Below the pieces are notes generated by a model, which saw nothing but the letters and a program-made list of their open reading frames with translations, had not been told where the DNA came from and searched no databases. From Candidatus Hermodarchaeum yapensis (GTDB lineage: Archaea; Asgardarchaeota; Hermodarchaeia; Hermodarchaeales; Hermodarchaeaceae), in the NCBI GenBank assembly GCA_016840405.1, contig JAEOSK010000018.1:1-54847 (forward strand): DNA of 54,847 nt, in the 5' to 3' direction. The translations under genes and the position numbers were made by a program. Below, piece by piece: positions 26,532-51,027 of the stretch (positions are counted from its first letter, which is position 1; each line of letters starts with the position of its first letter).

Positions 26532-28958
26532 CTAGAAGACTTCTGTAGGAATCAATAGCTTCTTCTCTCGAAGCTCGAAAATAGCATTCATTAACTCGGT
26601 GGGTTCTTCCCTAACTGTCTCTAAGTATGAATTCATGATTTCTCCCAAGAAGACTAATTCACTGGATTTTGCTAATTCTAAAGCTACAAAATGGAGACGG
26701 TTTTCTAAAACCGAGAGAGAAAGACCCTTAGACACTTCGGGGACTACTTTGTGAGGGAATAAGAGTGATACATGGAAAATTTCTTCAAGAAGATCATTGG
26801 CCCCAGCAAATATTGCAGGTTCGTATCCTCGTTTTTCTAATTGTTGTAAAAATCTTTCTTCGAATCTTGCAGAAAATGTTTGGATCTTTTCTTTTAACGT
26901 GTCACTGGGAATACCACGATATACAAGGGCGGTTCGAGTATAAGTGCCATCATGAATGATAACTCGAAAACCCTCATAAGAAATTTCGGAGAGCCGGGCT
27001 TGTGTTGGTAGAGCTGAATCATCTGAATTTGAGGCAACATCTATGGCAAAGGCTTGTAACGCTTGTAGGAAACCACCGAACAAAGAGGCATCCATCCCCT
27101 TATCCTTGAATGGATCAAAGATAGCTATTCCAGATCCATGATGAAGAACAAGGAAACGGGAAAGATTGGTCACGTCATTGAACATTTCAAGAACTTCTTG
27201 GAGTTTCCGTGCATGTGCAACACGTTTGGGGATAACATATCTTGGGTTGTAGACCTTGCTGTAAAGAATCCAACCTAAGAGAATGGAAATAAGCAGTATT
27301 ACAGCTAGGATAAGGAATTCAGTCTGAATGCCAAATAATGTTGGTGGAATACCCGTGTTTACAACGACTGAAAATTCCAAGGCAGTTCCCGTTGCGGATG
27401 TAGCGTTCAAATAACCTTCTTTTAGAAATTCAATCTCAATTGAGAGGGGAGAGTCGGAATCAGTTTTAATTATTGGCACATGTATAGCATATGATCCGCA
27501 ACCATTGTGAATCATCGAAATAGTGAATGTACTATTGCTTTTATCTGTATAACGTAATGTGACTGTGGCATTCTTAACAAACAGGCCTAAATCCAAATTT
27601 ATCCAAGAAACATTGACGAATAAGCTGCTCCATCCATAGCGACCATTTGGTACTGGAGAATTCAGAACTGGTTCCGTTTGAATAATGGAAATACAATGAA
27701 TATCAAAGGTTTCGCCAGGGATACCTATGTTCTCGTCCATGAGGAGAAACCGAGTGGTTGCGTTATAAGAATAGCTGTTGATTTTGTTTCCAATTTGATT
27801 TCTCACAACAACCAAATTCCACTCATATGGGAGATGAAGTCCAAATTGATAATTCTGATAGTTCGGAGGAGGTCGACCAGATGGAATAGTATAGTTGATT
27901 ACCCAACTTGGTTCCGAATCAGAAGATACAGTAAAGGAAGAAATCGCTGACTCCTCTCCTTCAGTTTTAACAAACATTGTGTATTGAACATCAAATGTAA
28001 TCGAATCATTTGCTGCAAAAATTAACGTTTGATTCGTATTCCAACCTAGAGAGGGGCTAATTTCCTCTTTTAGAATGGGATCGACATAAATATCAACTTC
28101 ACCATTCGCTGCAAAAGTATCGATAACTTCAGTGCTATTGAGAGTTAACTCCACTCCGCTGGGGGCATCATAGGTGCCTATTTGGTATTCAAAATTATCA
28201 AAGTAGATGAGTCCATCTACATCCAGGTTTGAGCTGTCTGTTTTTTGAAGAGTAATTCGGAGGGTTAGTGACCCATTTACTGGGATCGTTGGAAAGCTAA
28301 TGTGAGTCCATGTTGTTGGGGCAAATTCTGAGGTGGGTTGCCACCACATACCCATTGAATCATTGAGGTGATCTTCGATTTCAACACGTATGATAAACCA
28401 GTCTTCTTTAGTTATATCAGCAGAAAAGCGAATGTCAAAAGAAAGGGTGAGGGTTGTTGGTGTGAATTGTGATATGAATTCAAAGTCATTATCGACATAA
28501 TCTGTCTGGGTTCCTAATACTTTACCATTTTTTAGCTCTAAAACATAGCAAGAACCAGGATTACCTTCAGGTATTGTGTAATTATCTTTAATCAAATCAG
28601 TAGATTGCGTGACTGTCCAATTGTTTCCTGGTTCTGGGTATTGCTCAAAATCACCGTTTGGGATAGGATTTATGGTTTTTCGGAGATCTGTGATTGCTGC
28701 ATGAAGACGATATCCGTAATAATTTGGTGGATAAAAGTCAGAGTTGAAAGTAAATATCGTATCATTGTGGGCGTTGGAGAAGATTGGAGTTTTGTTATGA
28801 CAGTACTCATAGACATCAAGTAAAGACCAAATTTCAGAATTTAAGGATGCAAGCGACTCCACTAAAACTGCGTTTCGATTTTGTGATGCAATACCAGGAG
28901 TAGTGAAGCTAGAGACTAGGATGAGAGCGATGGTTACGTATAGTACGTGTTTCCGCAT
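26532..28958 (-). CDS. Single-pass membrane protein: extracellular beta-rich domains, TM, cytoplasmic longin-like and winged-helix-like domains
   Basis: Signal peptide; NGDFE/YFDN jelly-roll-like motifs; TM near 27260-27320; tail LVLHHGSGIAIF..MDASLFGGFLQALQAF..ISYEGFRVII. Confidence 0.7.
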   Translation of the reverse strand: MRKHVLYVTIALILVSSFTTPGIASQNRNAVLVESLASLNSEIWSLLDVYEYCHNKTPIFSNAHNDTIFTFNSDFYPPNYYGYRLHAAITDLRKTINPIPNGDFEQYPEPGNNWTVTQSTDLIKDNYTIPEGNPGSCYVLELKNGKVLGTQTDYVDNDFEFISQFTPTTLTLSFDIRFSADITKEDWFIIRVEIEDHLNDSMGMWWQPTSEFAPTTWTHISFPTIPVNGSLTLRITLQKTDSSNLDVDGLIYFDNFEYQIGTYDAPSGVELTLNSTEVIDTFAANGEVDIYVDPILKEEISPSLGWNTNQTLIFAANDSITFDVQYTMFVKTEGEESAISSFTVSSDSEPSWVINYTIPSGRPPPNYQNYQFGLHLPYEWNLVVVRNQIGNKINSYSYNATTRFLLMDENIGIPGETFDIHCISIIQTEPVLNSPVPNGRYGWSSLFVNVSWINLDLGLFVKNATVTLRYTDKSNSTFTISMIHNGCGSYAIHVPIIKTDSDSPLSIEIEFLKEGYLNATSATGTALEFSVVVNTGIPPTLFGIQTEFLILAVILLISILLGWILYSKVYNPRYVIPKRVAHARKLQEVLEMFNDVTNLSRFLVLHHGSGIAIFDPFKDKGMDASLFGGFLQALQAFAIDVASNSDDSALPTQARLSEISYEGFRVIIHDGTYTRTALVYRGIPSDTLKEKIQTFSARFEERFLQQLEKRGYEPAIFAGANDLLEEIFHVSLLFPHKVVPEVSKGLSLSVLENRLHFVALELAKSSELVFLGEIMNSYLETVREEPTELMNAIFELREKKLLIPTEVF

Positions 28959-35951: not shown

Positions 35952-37190
35952 ATGGCGGTCAACATTATTACTTTCTTTTCATCAGTGTCCCCTCAAGAAC
36001 GTATTTCCGAGATTAATGGTAAATTAAACGCCACAAAAGCGCGAATTTTTACAACCAACTCGTTTTTCAAAGATGGTGTCAAAGCGGATAAAACGATTAG
36101 AGATCAACATAACTACTTGTTTATTGGAACAGGGGGAACTGAAGCAGAAGTTGTCCAATTCATTACAAAATCCAAGATTACCCCTCCTATCCTCCTTCTA
36201 AGTCATGAGGGAAGCAATTCACTACCAGCTGCGATGGAGATTCGGTCATATTTACAGAAACAGGATATTCCTGCACGAATCATCCATGATTCGCTAGAAA
36301 ATCTCACCTCAAGAATTCAAGAGTGGGAGAAATTTACCGAAGTTATCGCTCGAATTCAAGATAGCCGGATAGGTATTGTCGGAAAAGCTTCCTCTTGGCT
36401 GATGGCGTCAGACATTAATCGATCGGCTGTCAGTAAGAAGTGGGGTGTGGAATTCAGGAACTATTCGATGAACACTATTATTGAGAGAAAAGATGATGAC
36501 TTATGGGAAGAATTTCGACCTAACCTTGAACAGTTTTTGTCCAACGCAACTAGCATCGAATGCAGTAATGCAGATATTCGTCAAGCTGCCATCATTGCTC
36601 AGGCCGTCGCGGCGCTGGTCCGAAATCATGATCTCGATGCTGTGACCATTGAATGCTTCAAGCTCCTTGAAGACACCGAAGTCTCAGGCTGTTTTGCTAC
36701 TTCACATATTAACACCTTAGAGGGGGTTGTTGCTGGGTGTGAGGGGGATTTGCCAACCACTTTCACTATGCTGTTAGCCAAATACCTGACGAACCAACCC
36801 GCATTTATGGCTAATGTTGTGGATGTTAACGTAGACAACAACTCGGTAGTCTTTGCCCACTGCACGGTTCCCACTTCAATTCTCGAATCATATGATATTA
36901 CAAGCCATTATGAATCAGGAAGAAGTGTAGCCATTCGGGGTCGATTTCCATTCCGAGATATTACGGTCTTCAAAATGTTCGGAGAAGATCTCACAAGCTT
37001 CTGGGTGTCGGAGGGGGTAATCACAAAAAACCTTTCAAACGAGGAACAATGTCGGACGCAGATTCGAACAACAATCACTGACCCAGTTAGTTATTTCCTC
37101 TCTTCCTCTCTTGCCAACCATCATGTTATCATCCCAGGCAAACATAAACGCCTTATCATCGACTTTTTTAACTTCATTCAACGCCAATAA
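35952..37190 (+). CDS. L-fucose/L-arabinose isomerase-like protein
   Basis: GTGGTE, NSLPAAMEI, CEGD, AHCTVP, HYES, CRTQ and NHH motifs. Confidence 0.75.
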   Translation: MAVNIITFFSSVSPQERISEINGKLNATKARIFTTNSFFKDGVKADKTIRDQHNYLFIGTGGTEAEVVQFITKSKITPPILLLSHEGSNSLPAAMEIRSYLQKQDIPARIIHDSLENLTSRIQEWEKFTEVIARIQDSRIGIVGKASSWLMASDINRSAVSKKWGVEFRNYSMNTIIERKDDDLWEEFRPNLEQFLSNATSIECSNADIRQAAIIAQAVAALVRNHDLDAVTIECFKLLEDTEVSGCFATSHINTLEGVVAGCEGDLPTTFTMLLAKYLTNQPAFMANVVDVNVDNNSVVFAHCTVPTSILESYDITSHYESGRSVAIRGRFPFRDITVFKMFGEDLTSFWVSEGVITKNLSNEEQCRTQIRTTITDPVSYFLSSSLANHHVIIPGKHKRLIIDFFNFIQRQ

Positions 37191-40320: not shown

Positions 40321-41526
40321 ATGGACGAAACTAAAGGTACAAAAATTTACGGTTATCGTTGGGTTGTTTTGGTAGCATTCATGTTCATTGCTGCTGTAAC
40401 GCAATTACTTTGGATTATGTTTGCTCCCATTTCATCTCTTGTTGCGTTATTGTATGGAGCAACCGAACTTGACATCGCACTCCTTTCACTAATTTTTATG
40501 GTCGTCTACATTCCTGTGTCTATCCCCTCGGCTTACGTCATCGATAGCAGGGGCTTCAAAATTGCTTGTGTGATTGGAGCTTTCATTACCGCTATTTTTG
40601 CAATTTTACGGGCGTTTTCACCGACTTACCTTATGCTTCTCATCTTCTCTGCAGGAATTGCCATTGGTCAACCCTTTGTGTTTAATAGTCCAACAAAAAT
40701 CGCCCGGCGTTGGTTCCCCGCAAAGGAACGAGGGCTCGCTACTGGTCTCGGAACCATGGCAATTTTTCTGGGCATATTATTGGGATTATTAGTTACTCCC
40801 TTCGCGACCCTAGCGTTCGGATTTACAAATATGATGTTTCTGTATGCGGGCATCGCAATTGTTGCCGCGATTGTATTCTTGTTCCTAGCTCGGGAACAGC
40901 CCTCTACTCCCCCTGAAATGGACGAACTCGAAGACGAAAAGATGATGACAGGGCTCCGACGCCTCTTTAGCATCAAACAATTCTTCATCCTGCTCGTTCT
41001 CTTCTTCATCGGATTAGGCATTTTCAATGGCATAGCCACTTGGATTGAACAGATACTCCTAGGACGTGTTGTTGACTTGACCCAGGCTGGCATAGTAGGC
41101 GCCACGATAATTTTTGGAGGAATCATTGGAGCAGTAATTATCCCTGAACTTTCAGATCGGTTTCAACGGCGAAAACCCTTCATTCTCTTAGCATTAGTAA
41201 TGGCGATACCCTTCACGTTCCTACTCGCTTATCATCCAGATTACACTGTGATTCTTATCTCAGCGTTTCTCCTGGGATTCTTCCTGATGCCCGCTCTCCC
41301 CATTGGATTACAGGCTGGCGCGGAAATGACAACACCCATACCTGAAGGAACTTCAGCGGGAGTTCTAATGATCTTTGGTCAAGCGGGTGGTATCGTACTC
41401 ATCCTTCTCATGTCCCTCGTCAGAGACGTCATGCTAACCTTCTTCTGGGCCATGATGTTGCTCATTGTTCTTGATGTGTTTGCATTGCTAGGTTCTCTAC
41501 TCTTCAAAGAAACTGCCAAGGGCTAG
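40321..41526 (+). CDS. MFS transporter resembling FLVCR/SLC49
   Basis: YRWVVL..LWIMFAPIS, YIP, GQPF...PTKIA.RWFP.KER and E.T.P.PEGTSAG motifs. Confidence 0.8.
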   Translation: MDETKGTKIYGYRWVVLVAFMFIAAVTQLLWIMFAPISSLVALLYGATELDIALLSLIFMVVYIPVSIPSAYVIDSRGFKIACVIGAFITAIFAILRAFSPTYLMLLIFSAGIAIGQPFVFNSPTKIARRWFPAKERGLATGLGTMAIFLGILLGLLVTPFATLAFGFTNMMFLYAGIAIVAAIVFLFLAREQPSTPPEMDELEDEKMMTGLRRLFSIKQFFILLVLFFIGLGIFNGIATWIEQILLGRVVDLTQAGIVGATIIFGGIIGAVIIPELSDRFQRRKPFILLALVMAIPFTFLLAYHPDYTVILISAFLLGFFLMPALPIGLQAGAEMTTPIPEGTSAGVLMIFGQAGGIVLILLMSLVRDVMLTFFWAMMLLIVLDVFALLGSLLFKETAKG

Positions 41527-41546: not shown

Positions 41547-42488
41547 ATGGAACGCTCATATTGGTATGGAATATTACTCTTCGTTCTCGCACTCTTTCTC
41601 CAATTTATCCCCTTTTTTCTTCCAGCCCTTATTTCAGGTGTTGGCGTTGACATATGGGGTGGAGATATTTTTGACTATGGTTTGTATGCCACTTTATCTG
41701 CGTTTGGGGATCAAGCTCTCAATAACCTACTACTACCTGTAACAATACTTCTTGGTGGACTGATTGGAGGAATTCTTTTCGTACCATTATACCTTGGCGT
41801 ACATCGTCTGATCTATAAACGATCTCGCAACTACGGATTTTTAGATCATCAAATTACTCCAAGTTTGAGCCGTTGGTTACGAAGGGGAATTCTCCCCACG
41901 CTCTTTGCTGTTTACGTCAGTATGACGCTGGCAAACATCTTGGTTGATACGTTAGGAGACCCTATTCTCAGCCTGATTTTTGCGGACACAATTAATCTCG
42001 CAATTGAGGATATAGTTACCATCAAGATCATGCTATGGGGAATAACCGGTCTTGTTGGCACCTTCGTTTGTTGTGCCTTGGTAGTACCGACTTGGTTTCT
42101 TGATGATGCAGGTTTGCTGACCTCAAATGTTAAAATCGATCAACCTCTTGATACGATTCCCAATCAATTACCCAATATTTCAGGTGTGGGTTTTTGGCTA
42201 GCCCGATTACTCAAAGGTTTTGCAGGCATCGCGGTAATCATTCTCTATGCTACAACACTCACCGAGTCCATTATATTGACTTGGCAATATCTCCTTATGT
42301 TTGGCATCGTTGAATTACCTTATCTGATTGTGAATCTGCTCATGTTCCCGTTGTATCCCATTATCATTCTCTTGCTTAGTCTCCCTCTTCTAATGGTCTT
42401 AGACTATTTTGTTCAATCTCGTCAAAGATATGTAAAGCGAATCGGAGAATGGATGGGAATTCAAACTCATTTCGAGTCAGAGCGTTGA
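41547..42488 (+). CDS. Hypothetical polytopic membrane protein
   Basis: About 6 TM segments; WFLDDAG and G.W....KGFAG motifs. Confidence 0.7.
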   Translation: MERSYWYGILLFVLALFLQFIPFFLPALISGVGVDIWGGDIFDYGLYATLSAFGDQALNNLLLPVTILLGGLIGGILFVPLYLGVHRLIYKRSRNYGFLDHQITPSLSRWLRRGILPTLFAVYVSMTLANILVDTLGDPILSLIFADTINLAIEDIVTIKIMLWGITGLVGTFVCCALVVPTWFLDDAGLLTSNVKIDQPLDTIPNQLPNISGVGFWLARLLKGFAGIAVIILYATTLTESIILTWQYLLMFGIVELPYLIVNLLMFPLYPIIILLLSLPLLMVLDYFVQSRQRYVKRIGEWMGIQTHFESER

Positions 42489-42547
42489 TAAAACAAAACG
42501 GATTTTATACTCTAAAACGATGAGTAACCAAGCAGTCTTTCATAAGG

Positions 42548-44926
42548 GTGTTTATGTATTTGCCTTCAGAACGTGTGCAACGTCTCCGTAATCACAGTAT
42601 CAGCGCTAGACCTTACATTTCTTCGGAACGTGCAGAGCTGCTCACAGAGTTCTTTGAGCAACATGCAAATGAGGGGAAATCAATCCCTGTAACTCGTGCC
42701 CTTGCCTTCAAACATATCCTTGAACACAAAGCGTTGTATTTTGGTGATGGGGAATTAATTGTGGGAGAACGGGGACCAGAACCTAAAGCTACTCCAACTT
42801 ACCCCGAATTATGTTGCCATTCTCTCAAGGATTTCGATGTATTGGAAAGTCGTGATGTGGCCCCCTTTTCTGTTAGTGAGGATGTTCGAAGGGTATATGA
42901 GGAGAGGATTCTTCCGTTTTGGAAAGGCAAAACGATGCGAGAATTTGTGTTCTCTGCTGTGAGTTCGGAGTGGCAATTGGCGTATTCTGTAGGAGTTATC
43001 ACTGAGTTCATGGAGCAACGTGCCCCAGGTCATGCCATTCTTGATGACAAAATCTACAATCGTGGCTTACTGGACTTCAAACAGGAGATTGAAACATCAA
43101 TTTCTTTACTTGATTTTGACAAGGATCCTGAAGCACTTCTTAAGGAAGAAGAACTGAAAGCAATGGCGATTACCATCGATGCCCTAATCCATTATGCAGA
43201 ACGTTATGCGAAAAAAGCCTTAGACCTCGCTGAAAAAGAGAAAGATCAGTTACGTAAAAAAGAACTGGAGATAATTGCTTCCGTTTGTTCTCATGTTCCT
43301 GCTCATGCACCTCGCGATTTCTGGGAAGCTTTACAGATGTATTGGTTCGTTCATCTTGGCGTTATTACAGAGTTGAACGTGTGGGATTCTTTCAATCCCG
43401 GACGACTTGATCAACACTTACTTCCCTTCTTCAAAAAAGGAATTGAAACCGGAACCCTCTCGAAAGAGTTTGCAAAGGAATTACTACAGTGCTTCTGGGT
43501 TAAGTTTAACAATCAACCGGCTCCACCGAAGGTTGATGTTACGGTAGAGCAAAGCGGAACCTATCAGGATTTTGCTCTCATCAACGTGGGTGGGCTGACC
43601 CCAGACGGGGAAGATGCAGTCAATGAATTGTCTTACATGATTCTTGATGTCTGTAAAGATATGCAGCTGATTATGCCCAGCCTATGTATACAATTGAGCT
43701 CCAAGAGCCCAGATCAATTCCTCCATCATGCGTTAACCGTTGTCAAAGCGGGATTTGGTCAACCTTCAATCTTCAATACCGATGTCATCATACAAGAATT
43801 TCTTCGCGCTGGTAAATCCTTGGAAGACGCCCTGAGTGGCGGACCCAGTGGCTGTGTCACAATAAGTGCCTTCGGGAAAGAGAGCTGCATCCTCACAGGA
43901 TATTGTAACTGGCCTAAGATTCTCGAATTAGCCTTGAATAATGGTCAAGACCCACTAACAGGAAAACAAGTTGGTCCCACAACGGGCAAGGCGACAGGTT
44001 TCACTTCATTTAATGATGTACTACTCGCCTATAAACAACAATTACAGTATTTCATCAACCTCAAAATTAACGGCAATAATCGGATTGAACGATTATATGC
44101 CCAGAACATGCCCGCACCGTTTCTTTCCTTACTATTTGATGACTGTATCAAGAAGGGCAAAGACTACCACGATGGAGGGCCACGATACAACTCCACATAC
44201 ATTCAAGGCGTTGGACTAGGAACGCTCACGGATTCGCTGTCGGCTGTAAAATACCACGCATTTGACAAACGGACGGTTTCACTCTCTTCACTAATCAGAT
44301 CTCTGAACAAAAATTTTGAAGCCAATGAGGAATTACGGCAGCGGCTCATCACCGAAGCACCGAAATTCGGTAATGATGATGACTATGCGGATAAAATCGC
44401 CCAAGAAATCTTTGATGCCTACTTTTCACCCATTGATGGACGTCCGAACACAAAAGGGGGCGAGTACCGGGTGAATCTGCTACCTACAACCGTACACATC
44501 TACTTCGGTCGTATTACAGGAGCTACACCCAACGGGCGCAAAGCGGGTTATCCACTTTCTGATGGCATTTCACCAAGTCACGGTTCAGATACTTGTGGCC
44601 CTACAGCAGTAATCCGATCTGTTTCTAAAATTGACCATGTGAAAACTGGAGGAACTCTTCTAAATCAGAAGCTTCTTCCCAAACTTTTGAACACAAACAC
44701 GGGAATAGAGAAACTAGCGGCCCTCATCCGCACATACTTCAAACTTGGCGGTCACCATATTCAGTTCAACGTAATCGATGCACATACTTTGAAGGATGCT
44801 CAACAGCACCCTGAACTGTACCGTGACCTCATTGTCCGTGTTGCAGGATACAGTGACTACTTCGTCGATATTGGGAAAGAACTGCAGGACGAAATTATTG
44901 CTAGAACAACCCAAGATGAGTTTTAA
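42548..44926 (+). CDS. Glycyl radical enzyme, trans-4-hydroxy-L-proline dehydratase (HypD)-like
   Basis: C-terminal RVAGYS glycyl loop; EQRAPGH, WDSFNPGRLDQ, SGTYQDF, SGCVT, LTGY and LPTT motifs. Confidence 0.9.
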   Translation: MFMYLPSERVQRLRNHSISARPYISSERAELLTEFFEQHANEGKSIPVTRALAFKHILEHKALYFGDGELIVGERGPEPKATPTYPELCCHSLKDFDVLESRDVAPFSVSEDVRRVYEERILPFWKGKTMREFVFSAVSSEWQLAYSVGVITEFMEQRAPGHAILDDKIYNRGLLDFKQEIETSISLLDFDKDPEALLKEEELKAMAITIDALIHYAERYAKKALDLAEKEKDQLRKKELEIIASVCSHVPAHAPRDFWEALQMYWFVHLGVITELNVWDSFNPGRLDQHLLPFFKKGIETGTLSKEFAKELLQCFWVKFNNQPAPPKVDVTVEQSGTYQDFALINVGGLTPDGEDAVNELSYMILDVCKDMQLIMPSLCIQLSSKSPDQFLHHALTVVKAGFGQPSIFNTDVIIQEFLRAGKSLEDALSGGPSGCVTISAFGKESCILTGYCNWPKILELALNNGQDPLTGKQVGPTTGKATGFTSFNDVLLAYKQQLQYFINLKINGNNRIERLYAQNMPAPFLSLLFDDCIKKGKDYHDGGPRYNSTYIQGVGLGTLTDSLSAVKYHAFDKRTVSLSSLIRSLNKNFEANEELRQRLITEAPKFGNDDDYADKIAQEIFDAYFSPIDGRPNTKGGEYRVNLLPTTVHIYFGRITGATPNGRKAGYPLSDGISPSHGSDTCGPTAVIRSVSKIDHVKTGGTLLNQKLLPKLLNTNTGIEKLAALIRTYFKLGGHHIQFNVIDAHTLKDAQQHPELYRDLIVRVAGYSDYFVDIGKELQDEIIARTTQDEF

Positions 44927-46474: not shown

Positions 46475-48166
46475 CTAGATTTCTGGTCGTGAAAGACGTT
46501 TGACTCCTATCACAAGTGCTAAGCTTCCGACAATGAGGAGACTAATCATGCTTATGAGGGCAAAGGCATAGGGCATTCCCGTTGCCCCTACTGCATCATG
46601 GATCATATTCCAGAAAGGCAATCCTGCCATGTCACCGAACATCGTTATCAAGATGGGAGCGAAGAGAGTGAATTGAGCACCCATGGTGGTGATGATAACG
46701 TTCATTTGATGTTCTGGGGATTTCGTGTCTTCATAGTAGGGATTCCAAGCGGTTACGCCTGTACCAAACATAATTGCTCCAGCAATGATGACATAGCCAT
46801 ATGCAACCAAGAACAGGAAGCGGTCAAGAGTTCCTCCACTAAGGAGCGTCATAACTAATGCCGGGATAAAGCCCAGTGGTATCGCAATTATGAACGCTGA
46901 AACTAATCGAGCTTTAACGTATCGTGCAGTTCCAGATGGTGTGCTTTGGATTATCCAAAGTTGATCTTTACTTTCCATGAATGCAGTTCCTGAGAAGGTA
47001 TATCCTCCAATCATCGCCATCCCAATGCCTCCGACCATGATGAGTGCCATCATATCGAACCCTCCCACGTCGCCAATATTGATCATGATTTGCGACATAA
47101 TAAATGGAAGGACGACTGCAAGGATGATACCGTAGGCGATTTTGGAGATATTTGAAGCCCTTCGGAAGAAGTCTTTGAAACAGGTCACTACTAAGGAGCC
47201 AAAAGATCCTGGGGCTAGTTTCCGTATTCCTCGAATGACAAAATGCTCTCTTGTAATTGTTGTAACTTGTTCAGTTCGAGCACCAATATTGTATGTAAAG
47301 ATACGATCGGCCGAAGCAAGTCCGATTCCTACAACAGCGATGGTAAAGATGCTCATTAACGCTGTACTGAAGAGGAGATCAAAGTTTAGGATTTGTTGGA
47401 ATGCTAGAATTTGTTCAACACTAAATCCGATTTGGCTGGAGTGTATGGTTATCCAGCTGATGACATCTGCGGGCCACGTGAAGGGGAAGAGGAGGAAGAC
47501 GTTTAATCCGAGGATAACGGAGAAGTGTTGACTGAAGAACATAATTCCATAGATGGGGACGATGCTGACAATGGCTAGTAATATGGCTACACCATTGGCT
47601 ATGTCTTTTCCACGAGAGGATTCACCAAGTTTGGCTTGAATTGCGGCTGTAATTAAGTTAGCGAGCCAGATTGTTGTGAGGATCATAAGAAAGAGGGTTA
47701 GATACGTCAAGATTTGGCCAAGTAGAGCAACTTCGAATGCTAGAAAGAAAAGAACTAGAAATGGCGGAGTGATGAAAAGCACAAGGAGACCATAAAGCGG
47801 AATTCTCCCTATGAATGTACCAATGAGAATATCACGGGTTGAAACATTGTTAGAGAGAAAGATTTCCCATTGACCAATCTTGATTTCTTGGAGAGATCGT
47901 GACAGGGGTATGATGAGGATTAAAATCCATATGAAGAACATGGCTGCACGCATGAATCCAGGAAGCATGTTAATCAAGATTATTTGGAGAATTTCAATTG
48001 GAATGATGAAATCTGCCATTATCCCAATGATGTAGGGCGCAAGGAATAATGCCCAGATGAGTCCCAAAGCGTAAAGTATTGTGATATTCCGTGTTCGATT
48101 TTCACGGAATGACACAGTGCTGACTTGGTATTCTGCTTTGGCAATTCTTGACCATTTTCGAGTCAT
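46475..48166 (-). CDS. ABC exporter permease (two ABC-2-like halves)
   Basis: About 12-13 TM; repeated FLSNNVSTRDI / LWIIQSTP coupling-type loops; directly follows the ATPase. Confidence 0.8.
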   Translation of the reverse strand: MTRKWSRIAKAEYQVSTVSFRENRTRNITILYALGLIWALFLAPYIIGIMADFIIPIEILQIILINMLPGFMRAAMFFIWILILIIPLSRSLQEIKIGQWEIFLSNNVSTRDILIGTFIGRIPLYGLLVLFITPPFLVLFFLAFEVALLGQILTYLTLFLMILTTIWLANLITAAIQAKLGESSRGKDIANGVAILLAIVSIVPIYGIMFFSQHFSVILGLNVFLLFPFTWPADVISWITIHSSQIGFSVEQILAFQQILNFDLLFSTALMSIFTIAVVGIGLASADRIFTYNIGARTEQVTTITREHFVIRGIRKLAPGSFGSLVVTCFKDFFRRASNISKIAYGIILAVVLPFIMSQIMINIGDVGGFDMMALIMVGGIGMAMIGGYTFSGTAFMESKDQLWIIQSTPSGTARYVKARLVSAFIIAIPLGFIPALVMTLLSGGTLDRFLFLVAYGYVIIAGAIMFGTGVTAWNPYYEDTKSPEHQMNVIITTMGAQFTLFAPILITMFGDMAGLPFWNMIHDAVGATGMPYAFALISMISLLIVGSLALVIGVKRLSRPEI

Positions 48167-49014: not shown

Positions 49015-49056
49015 ATTTAAGTGGGGCAAAGCTACTATCTACTGGATGAACAAACC

Positions 49057-49698
49057 ATGTCTGAACGTGTAGATTTGAAAGAAATCGAACGAAAGAGTTA
49101 CCTCTCTTATCACCAAGACGGACTTGCTGAAATTTGCCTAGGAATTCCATTAATCCTCTTTGGACTTCTCTTTCATCCATTAATTGCTGGTTATGTACCT
49201 GGAGTTGCAATGAGTCAGATTGTTTGGTTTGTATTCATCTACGCAGCATTAAAAAGGGCGATTACTATTCCACGAATAGGCTATGTAGAGTTTTTACCAC
49301 GACGACGAACCCGTTTTGCATTACTTATCCTAATTCTTGTATTGATTACGTTCGTCCCTCTATTACTTGTTTTTTTGCTCACCGCAGGTCAGCAAATCGT
49401 TCCTGCAATGTCTGATGTTATGATCTTTTATTTACTCATTATTTGTGGTCTTTTCGGTTCGGGGATTTTGACTCTAATTGGGTTATTCACGGAGATTCGT
49501 CGATTCTATGGATATGCAATTATCACTTTGATTCTTTTCATTATCGGCTTTTTCCTAGTCCTTCCCTTTGCATTGCCAGTGATTGGCATTGGTATAATCA
49601 TCACAATTACGGGATTTGTTAAACTCACTCAGTTTCTTCGTAAATATCCGAAGAGCACTGAAGAACACATTTCTGTTGAAGAATGGCAAGAGGAATAA
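49057..49698 (+). CDS. Membrane protein, paralogue 1 of 3 (about 6 TM)
   Basis: IERKSYLSYHQDG, PRIGYVEF and FLRKYPK motifs; ATG 49057 aligns with the starts of the other paralogues. Confidence 0.8.
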   Translation: MSERVDLKEIERKSYLSYHQDGLAEICLGIPLILFGLLFHPLIAGYVPGVAMSQIVWFVFIYAALKRAITIPRIGYVEFLPRRRTRFALLILILVLITFVPLLLVFLLTAGQQIVPAMSDVMIFYLLIICGLFGSGILTLIGLFTEIRRFYGYAIITLILFIIGFFLVLPFALPVIGIGIIITITGFVKLTQFLRKYPKSTEEHISVEEWQEE

Positions 49699-49761
49699 AT
49701 GGAGAGTGAGTGCTGTAAACATTCGAAAAATGTTTGTTGGATTGCGTAGAGGTGGATTATC

Positions 49762-50397
49762 TTGAATGAAAGTATTAACTTACAACAGCTTGAACGTAAA
49801 GCCTATCTTTCCTATCATCAGGATGGAGTGATTGACATTTTCATTGGGTCTGCTATAGTGACCTTTGGACTTTTCTTACTTCCATGGGTTGTTGAGTATT
49901 TATGGATGGCATTCTCGAGCCTATCTATCATCTGGGTGTTGATTTATGCCGGAGTAAAACGGGCCTTTACTGTCCCTCGGATTGGTTATGTTGAATTTAA
50001 GAAACACCGAAGGAGCCGGGTTATGCTAATTGCTGTTTTATTATTCATTATTAATCTAGTATTCTTTCTTATTCAGGCTTTGGGTCTATTAACACCTGAA
50101 CTTCGAATATTTCTCAACGTGTATGGATTTATGGTATTAGCCTTCGTTGTTGGAGGCTTGTTCTTCTTAATTGGATTTTTGACGGAACTACATCGCGTGA
50201 TGGGATATGGAGTTGTCGCTATTGCGGTTTTTCTTCCTCTTCAATTCTATCCAATGCATTTCTCTTATTCGATTATTTTGTTAGGTCTTGTGATGACAGC
50301 GTATGGCTGTGTGCTGCTCTTTCGATTTATCCGGAAATATCCAAAAGAAAATTCCGGAGTTGAACATGAGGATCCGTGGGAAGAACCAACTGATTAA
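49762..50397 (+). CDS. Membrane protein, paralogue 2 of 3
   Basis: LERKAYLSYHQDG, PRIGYVEF and FIRKYPK motifs; GAGGTG RBS. Confidence 0.8.
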   Translation: MNESINLQQLERKAYLSYHQDGVIDIFIGSAIVTFGLFLLPWVVEYLWMAFSSLSIIWVLIYAGVKRAFTVPRIGYVEFKKHRRSRVMLIAVLLFIINLVFFLIQALGLLTPELRIFLNVYGFMVLAFVVGGLFFLIGFLTELHRVMGYGVVAIAVFLPLQFYPMHFSYSIILLGLVMTAYGCVLLFRFIRKYPKENSGVEHEDPWEEPTD

Positions 50398-50412
50398 AGG
50401 AGTTGATCTAAA

Positions 50413-51027
50413 ATGACTAACAATTCAAAACTGCAAGAAATTGAAAGAAAAGCCTTCATCTCATATCACGGAGATGGGATTTTAGACATCTGCATTGGTA
50501 GCGCTCTTTTGGTGATGGCATTCTTTATTTGGCTACTTCCCGAATTCTGGTTCTTTGTAATTGGTGGATTGATTGGTTGGATCTCACTTTATACCGGCGC
50601 TAAAAAGTTAATAACGGCCCCTCGGTTGGGGTATGTCGAATTCTCATCTGTTCGGCGACGAAGAATCCAAAACATTATGATAGCAGGCGTGTTAATGCTG
50701 GTCGTCTTCAACATCCTTGGAGTTCTCGCCATAATCAATCCAATAATCGGGATTTTCATTTTTGAATCAGCGTTTACCATTCTAATCGTGGGAATTATCG
50801 GAGCATTTGTGTTAGCTCTAATTGGAACCATGTTGAATATACGACGATTTTATTCTTATAGCGTTGTGTTTCTAGGTGTAGCAGTTGTAACATTTTTCAT
50901 TCCCCTAATTCTTCTCCTTCCGCTGATCGTGGTTAGTATTGTCATGCTTGTGTATGGGCTATTTCTGCTCTACCAGTTTGTGCAAATGTATCCGAAAGAA
51001 GCCCGTGGAGAGGTGACGGGTGCCTGA
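50413..51027 (+). CDS. Membrane protein, paralogue 3 of 3
   Basis: IERKAFISYHGDG, PRLGYVEF and YPK motifs. Confidence 0.8.
   Translation: MTNNSKLQEIERKAFISYHGDGILDICIGSALLVMAFFIWLLPEFWFFVIGGLIGWISLYTGAKKLITAPRLGYVEFSSVRRRRIQNIMIAGVLMLVVFNILGVLAIINPIIGIFIFESAFTILIVGIIGAFVLALIGTMLNIRRFYSYSVVFLGVAVVTFFIPLILLLPLIVVSIVMLVYGLFLLYQFVQMYPKEARGEVTGA

Follow-up and report, generated by a model that had tools for sequence, protein, structure and literature searches.

A HypD-family gene with threonine on the Cys loop

The window analysed here is a 54,847-nucleotide stretch (contig JAEOSK010000018.1) of Candidatus Hermodarchaeum yapensis, an Asgard archaeon represented by a 2.7-Mb, 86%-complete metagenome-assembled genome (MAG), for which the closest protein match (94%) is named Hermodarchaeota. 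On its forward strand lies a gene for a glycyl radical enzyme (GRE) related to HypD, the trans-4-hydroxy-L-proline dehydratase of Clostridioides difficile, with the glutamate that defines HypD replaced by threonine (Table 1). Enzyme residues are numbered from the GTG start of the open frame, and 'Cd' marks C. difficile HypD numbering. The true start is more likely the ATG at 42554 (790 aa), situated 4 nt past a GGGTG, as the closest homologues measure 788-790 aa. On balance, and judging from sequence, we take the gene to encode a working HypD-family glycyl radical enzyme, belonging to a large uncharacterised clade with the loop PSGCV-T.

Table 1. Features of the enzyme gene and its upstream neighbours in the window
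Feature	Positions	Strand	Remarks
HypD-family glycyl radical enzyme gene, 'CVT' subfamily	42548-44926	+	Open frame, 792 aa from GTG
His162 (Cd His160, kept) and Ala163 (Cd Thr161 to Ala, signature)	43031-43036	+	
Asp280 (Cd Asp278, proposed acid/base), kept	43385-43387	+	
Gln335 (Cd Glu333 to Gln, signature); Ser336, Asp341 and Phe342 (Cd Ser334, Asp339 and Phe340, kept)	43550-43573	+	
Cys-loop codons TGT GTC ACA: Cys436 (thiyl; Cd Cys434), Val437, Thr438 (Cd Glu436)	43853-43861	+	
Ser440 (Cd Gly438 to Ser), subfamily signature	43865-43867	+	Two residues past Thr438; from alignment
Glycyl radical loop RVAGYS, residues 764-769, with Gly767 (Cd Gly765)	44837-44854	+	
TTTTATA, TATA-box-like	42503-42509	+	About 45 nt 5' of the ATG
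313-aa multi-pass membrane protein	41547-42488	+	Directly 5' of the enzyme gene; kept in L011
MFS transporter	40321-41526	+	20 bp 5' of the next gene; kept in the closest Hermodarchaeota-type loci, L010 and L011

Pfam matches in the enzyme are a full-length PFL-like domain (743 bits) and a Gly_radical domain (131 bits), and the NCBIfam HypD equivalog NF043068 scores 1200.5 bits, passing its cut-off of 1100. A phmmer search against all chains of the Protein Data Bank (PDB) aligns residues 8-789 with C. difficile HypD (6vxc) at 1021 bits, with glycerol dehydratase the runner-up among solved enzymes at 573 bits. The AlphaFold2 (AF2) model of the enzyme (pLDDT 82 and pTM 0.87, with the active-site loops 159-164, 332-338 and 646-658 at pLDDT below 50) likewise has 6vxc as its top fold match (TM 0.93, 53% identity). 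The two proteins (6VXC/6VXE for HypD) are collinear over their full length and share the Gly loop and the thiyl Cys. No other PFL-like gene occurs in the genome. An earlier note on this DNA had proposed a proline-ring-binding, HypD-like GRE, which the end-to-end alignment and the kept binding residues support.

Other GREs acting on hydroxyproline derivatives share the fold but lie further away. These are HpyG and HpzG (8ID1 and 8IOF), which are N-methyl-cis-4-hydroxyproline dehydratases, and HplG (7VUA), a trans-4-hydroxy-D-proline C-N lyase. They are 31-34% identical to the enzyme and score 415-518 bits, well short of the 1021 of HypD; the CXE motif is intact in each of the three, and their substrate-binding residues are unlike those kept in the enzyme. 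HpyG does resemble the subfamily in having Cys at the position of Cd Tyr445.

In the alignment to 6vxc, HypD SGCVETGCFGKE stands opposite SGCVTISAFGKE of the enzyme, so that the CXE hallmark of GRE 1,2-eliminases and isomerases appears as CVT, with Thr438 (ACA) in place of the HypD-defining Glu436. The codons and this alignment both bear out the earlier reading of TGT-GTC-ACA as C-V-T, and the accompanying argument, that no single sequencing error lies behind the Thr, also held. Contigs of four other public metagenome runs, from four studies, span 43725-44236 with zero differences at the three codons, and all four Thr codons are in use at this site across hundreds of homologues; sequencing error is therefore excluded. 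The role assigned in the same note to the Glu, that of a base acting on the substrate hydroxyl, is imprecise for HypD, in which Glu436 and His160 hydrogen-bond the leaving 4-OH and Asp278 is the proposed acid/base (PMC7077986).

The remainder of the substrate site is kept, as the earlier note had said: the His of RAPGH, the Asp of WDSF, the Ser, Asp and Phe of SGTYQDF, the Tyr of LTGY and the Thr of LPTT are all in place, and the radical loop RVAGYS is intact. Among 69 subfamily and 32 canonical sequences, Cd positions F152, R156, H160, W277, D278, K326, S334, D339, F340, C434, Y450, T645 and G765 are invariant, which covers every other residue implicated by structure or mutagenesis in C. difficile HypD (PMC7077986). 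Thus the acid/base network His160/Asp278/Asp339, present here as His162/Asp280/Asp341, does not vary in any of the 101. Adjoining these residues is a second set of positions at which the subfamily, including this enzyme, differs from HypD: Y144F, T161A, V162I, E333Q, I396V, G438S, Y445C and a Pro before SGC. To illustrate, Cd position 438 is Gly in 32 of 32 canonical sequences and Ser in 69 of 69 subfamily sequences. The earlier note, correct on the substrate residues and on the Thr change, had missed T161A, E333Q, G438S, Y445C and Y144F. These fixed substitutions are identical in members with Glu436 and members with Thr436. As they are independent of the residue at 436, the polar second shell is, by this alignment, rewired in the subfamily, with two carboxylates and two Tyr hydroxyls lost and a Ser gained on the Cys loop.

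Conservation and selection

The Thr replacement is real, under selection and clade-defining. When a collection of 5.8 billion proteins was searched for homologues, all 120 best matches, from 94% down to 68% identity, carried GGPSGCVT[IV]S[AVT]; they include Hermod-, Prometh-, Thor- and Heimdallarchaeota, Bathyarchaeota, Theionarchaea and Methanofastidiosia, and their agreement refutes the idea that CVT is a singleton. Species-representative genomes gave 79 loci, 59 with Thr and 20 with Glu, and a second search from a Glu-bearing seed returned 107 Thr and 12 Glu sequences. Pooled non-redundant relatives with the loop GGPSGCV-x number 306, with Thr in 286, Glu in the other 20 and no third residue; the family as a whole has roughly 8000 members. 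Canonical HypDs (CVE[TVAS]G[AC]) are basal in a maximum-likelihood tree, and the PSGCV sequences group together in a single clade (support 100); representatives at 50% identity, which merge canonical HypD and the CVT clade in the same clusters, were used for outgroups only. Whether CVT marks a conserved clade was the check that the earlier note had set itself, and the tree and counts answer it positively. No paper on the CVT variant was found in the literature on hydroxyproline dehydratase with Asgard or sediment phyla.

Pairwise dN/dS falls between 0.03 and 0.10 (0.096 for the enzyme versus a 91%-identical relative), on which the pseudogene reading is rejected. A gene that has lost both its essential Glu and its neighbouring activase could still be seen as a dead or decaying relic, all the more so as no activase adjoins it here or in Thorarchaeota, the E436Q exchange abolishes detectable activity in C. 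difficile HypD (PMC7077986), and a few orthologues carry single in-frame stops. Such a relic is highly improbable, however, not only on account of the low dN/dS but because hundreds of sequences from many phyla show no variation in the Gly loop, the Cys loop or any binding residue, the gene is retained in synteny throughout Thorarchaeota, and an activase is present in the source genome and adjoins the gene in bacterial Thr-type loci. The orthologues with a single in-frame stop are G067:C27:108-2513 (TGA), G145:C23:3418-5769 (TAA), G255:C289:1587-3932 (TAG) and G176:C21:27870-30221 (TAA); these four could be assembly errors or occasional pseudogenes.

Recurrent interchange of Glu and Thr

At least six Glu/Thr state changes are needed to explain the tree. 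A topology with all Thr sequences monophyletic is rejected (44 rows; difference in log likelihood 760, approximately unbiased (AU) test p 6e-52), the tested group having been chosen after the tree was seen. The clearest swap is that of two Glu-bearing Thorarchaeota genes (L040 and L049, with CVEISA), which are placed under six supported nodes within the Thorarchaeota CVT genes and occupy the exact syntenic slot of the Thr genes; L040 shares 86% identity, as well as synteny, with the Thr-bearing L033. The 20 Glu sequences make up about eight lineages, each 72-90% identical to its closest Thr relatives. At the switches the codons flanking the site are unchanged and the change is from AC to GA, so that these are point events rather than conversion tracts. 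A co-variation scan revealed no other alignment column that shifts consistently with Glu or Thr.

HypD-family genes are very common in Asgard archaea, with one in 163 of 301 sampled genomes (E <= 1e-150), and the matches split into two identity classes. The class at 65-76% consists of family f1, to which the source genome belongs, and the Thorarchaeota-type family f6, with the gene present in about 52 of 76 f6 genomes. The class at 57-62% comprises f4, f9, f12, f21, f23 and f27; canonical CVE is present in each of the 20 members sampled, and in 16 of them an activase gene directly precedes the enzyme gene. The Thr form is that of most Thorarchaeota and of Hermodarchaeota, and it is the dominant type in sediment lineages (Asgard, Bathyarchaeota, Aminicenantes and Phycisphaerae). 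Planctomycetota have the gene in 14 of 401 genomes, in single copy each. None of the 163 Asgard and 14 Planctomycetota carriers has two full-length family members; second matches in the Asgard genomes stay below 590 bits and are either fragments of genes or a different type of enzyme. One form therefore stands in for the other, and the two do not occur side by side. Many f6 genomes (G027, G037 and G046, for instance) have a second, more distant GRE, at E of about 1e-155 to 1e-170, and some have only that one.

Genomic context and activase

The enzyme gene is found with genes for the MFS transporter, the 313-aa membrane protein and a peptidase_C39-like protein, and the TTTTATA element upstream of its start suggests that it may have its own promoter. 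For the membrane protein no Pfam or NCBIfam family was found, and the Atlas clusters closest to it contain hypothetical proteins of Asgard archaea only. Two membrane proteins encoded in tandem 5' of the gene in L013 and L015 resemble it weakly (23% identity, E 0.009), and it may be a substrate-uptake partner, possibly of a new transporter family.

The source genome encodes one complete glycyl-radical activase (G000:C17:3285-4145, 336 bits to TIGR02494), whose best equivalog is the HypD activase at 299.5 bits, below the cut-off of 425. This gene is unlinked from the enzyme gene, a difference from HypD, and adjoins a Peptidase_S58 (DmpA-type aminopeptidase) gene (L002:2453-3544); a second activase is truncated at a contig end. 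In 24 Thorarchaeota loci (L020-L049, e.g. L022:2941-5307) the gene stands between archease with a PF02598 RNA methyltransferase and rpl3-rpl4-rpl23-rpl2, on the same strand and without an activase, which is an odd but stable place for a catabolic gene.

Bacterial relatives retain the activase-first operon of HypD, with the same peptidase and transporter neighbours. For Glu and Thr forms alike the activase gene lies 5', and on the 3' side come genes for an M3 oligopeptidase, an SSF sodium:solute symporter and an M24 Xaa-Pro peptidase, partners that point to catabolism of peptides containing proline (Pro) and hydroxyproline (Hyp). Thr-type loci with their own adjacent activase include L029 (Aminicenantes) and L054 (Phycisphaerales). 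Thr loci of the Aminicenantes type begin with a GntR regulator and the activase; the enzyme comes third, and after it lie genes for an Xaa-Pro peptidase, a Pro_racemase-family protein, an OCD/mu-crystallin reductase and an EamA transporter. The Pro_racemase-family protein has the motifs MCGH and DRSPTGTG, that is, the Cys/Thr pair that marks trans-3-hydroxy-L-proline dehydratases, whose product is reduced by OCD-family pyrroline-2-carboxylate reductases. Such a locus would be coherent for the imino acids of collagen-like peptides, with the GRE taking 4-hydroxyproline. No proC-like neighbours were found at Glu-type loci, and context does not separate the Glu form from the Thr form.

Pyrroline-5-carboxylate (P5C) reductase (PF14748) was found neither in the 86%-complete source genome, another difference from HypD, nor in any of the sampled genomes of the Thr-type families f1 (18) and f6 (76). 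In the Asgard sample it was found only in f9, f21 and f23, and not in f1, f4, f6, f12 or f27, all of which carry HypD-family genes. Because the Glu-type families f4, f12 and f27 lack it equally, its distribution does not discriminate between the forms; for most of these archaea, ProC is apparently not the route that the product takes.

At a Heimdallarchaeota Thr-type locus the gene next after the enzyme (L018:12491-13501) encodes a homologue of 2,4-diaminopentanoate dehydrogenase, at 329 bits, below the equivalog cut-off. That dehydrogenase is part of ornithine/2-amino-4-ketopentanoate metabolism, into which the product of HplG feeds. Elsewhere in the window, several long open reading frames (ORFs), of 808, 563, 412 and 204-225 aa, match no Pfam family (26532-28958 and 46475-48166 on the reverse strand, 35952-37190 and 49021-51027 on the forward strand).

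Published alkyl- and benzylsuccinate synthase assignments

Zhang et al. 2021 (PMC8163825) assigned single-Cys GREs of Hermodarchaeota and Thorarchaeota to the fumarate-adding alkyl- and benzylsuccinate synthases (Ass and Bss), on the basis of 29-33% identity and the single conserved Cys. Their bit scores were 262-320 for AssA, 234-294 for BssA, 336-463 for A. fulgidus PflD and 113-165 for E. coli Pfl. The present enzyme scores 296 bits with MasD, 275 with TutD, 445 with A. fulgidus PflD and 138 with E. coli Pfl, all within the published ranges. Because of this match, and because it is the sole PFL-like gene of its genome, the enzyme is very probably of the kind that these authors described, yet it is far closer to HypD. 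Other HypD-like genes, at loci L011, L013 and L015, share the similarity profile of the published Ass/Bss.

The enzyme does resemble the X-succinate synthases (TutD, 4PKC; MASS, 9O8U) in its glycyl radical fold, its single Cys and its want of a Glu at Cys+2, the CXE Glu being missing from fumarate-adding enzymes as well. Identity to BSS and MASS is nevertheless 26-27%, as opposed to about 53% and 1021 bits for HypD, and in the fold search with the AF2 model benzyl- and methylalkylsuccinate synthases appear at ranks 45-50 with the same 26-27%. All HypD-specific substrate residues are kept in place of those of the synthases, the nearest Glu-bearing relatives are canonical HypDs, and the gene context is one of peptidases, transporters and enzymes for imino acids. 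Among neighbouring ORFs of at least 80 aa, none that encodes a small Ass/Bss subunit was seen next to the gene. That the enzyme is itself an alkyl- or benzylsuccinate synthase is accordingly the least probable of the readings considered here, and hardly credible.

The label matters, since claims of hydrocarbon degradation by Hermodarchaeota, Thorarchaeota and other sediment lineages are built on it, and the present evidence argues against it. From these sequence comparisons, the hydrocarbon-degradation reading of those Hermodarchaeota and Thorarchaeota genomes probably rests on a mis-assigned enzyme. A similar fumarate-addition assignment was made for sediment MAGs of Aminicenantes, Bathyarchaeota, Thorarchaeota and Lokiarchaeota (Dong et al. 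2019, PMC6472368). Huang et al. 2018 found that archaeal HypDs form their own clade and did not mention the missing Glu, and a 2026 review (PMC13450708) lists characterised PFL-like enzymes as all bacterial and the archaeal clades as lacking validation.

Predicted reaction and substrate

We lean, by a modest degree, towards a Glu-independent HypD variant that would act on 4-hydroxyproline, the substrate of HypD, or on a compound very close to it. This is favoured because the binding site is unchanged, the contexts are shared, the two forms are mutually exclusive, and Glu and Thr replace one another in place. In the chemistry proposed for HypD, Cys434 takes the hydrogen from C5, and Asp278 accepts a proton from the amine and donates one to the leaving 4-OH (PMC7077986). 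By analogy, a radical-SAM activase encoded elsewhere in the genome would install the radical on Gly767, from which Cys436 would become a thiyl radical. The substrate, most likely 4-hydroxyproline, imported or freed from Pro/Hyp-containing peptides, would be held by Ser336, Tyr452, Thr647, Asp341, Phe342, Phe154 and Trp279, the unchanged contacts to carboxylate, amine and ring. Cys436 would then abstract hydrogen from C5, and Asp280, assisted by His162, would play the part of Asp278 at the amine and the leaving 4-OH. The leaving group might be positioned by the hydroxyl of Thr438, perhaps by that of Ser440, or by a bridging water, in place of the Glu carboxylate, and the predicted product is pyrroline-5-carboxylate.

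Several observations weigh against this proposal. The undetectable activity of C. difficile E436Q is one, and the conservation of CXE in every characterised GRE eliminase and isomerase (PMC13450708) is another. The site admits Glu and Thr alone, and each switch between them takes two adjacent base changes, which speaks for two selected states, possibly two specificities, over neutral equivalence. The loss of two acidic side chains near the site (E333Q and E436T) is compatible with a differently charged substrate. No assayed member of the subfamily was found in the literature searched, no activase adjoins the gene in the source genome or in Thorarchaeota, and P5C reductase was not found in the source genome or the sampled genomes of the Thr-type families f1 and f6.

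Some of the same observations suggest a switch in specificity, in which the subfamily, or its Thr form, acts on another proline-like substrate and position 436 toggles between two preferences. Candidates would be 3,4-dihydroxyproline, a different stereoisomer of hydroxyproline, or hydroxyproline modified on O or N (the O-modified forms of algae or animals), and the chemistry could differ as well. In HypD it is Glu436 that touches the 4-OH, and the E436Q exchange inactivates the enzyme. Across 306 sequences the site is bimodal, with about eight Glu lineages nested in Thr, and as every switch is a double substitution, selection for each state is suggested. The fixed remodelling of the second shell, the dominance of the Thr type in sediment lineages and the 2,4-diaminopentanoate dehydrogenase homologue next to the Heimdallarchaeota gene are also in keeping with a switch. 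On the other hand, the carboxylate, amine and ring contacts and the His160/Asp278 pair are unchanged, and no second site tracks the toggle. Glu and Thr forms have common operon partners and identical syntenic positions and do not co-occur, and Thr operons with 3-hydroxyproline dehydratase, reductase and prolidase look like ordinary collagen-type imino-acid catabolism. The earlier note had inferred different, possibly undescribed chemistry or a different substrate. With at least six swaps, no co-change, no co-occurrence and shared operon partners, this is not supported as stated; we regard a switch as a possible but secondary explanation, clearly less probable than the Glu-independent dehydratase. 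If true, it would amount to a glycyl radical reaction not yet described, on a HypD scaffold.

Automatic annotation calls the genes of this subfamily trans-4-hydroxy-L-proline dehydratase despite the missing defining residue. Should the Glu-independent dehydratase prove correct, a HypD reaction proceeding without the CXE glutamate would overturn the view of that Glu as essential. A natural clade with Thr, repeatedly reverting to Glu, is a ready set of variants with which to probe the role of the glutamate.

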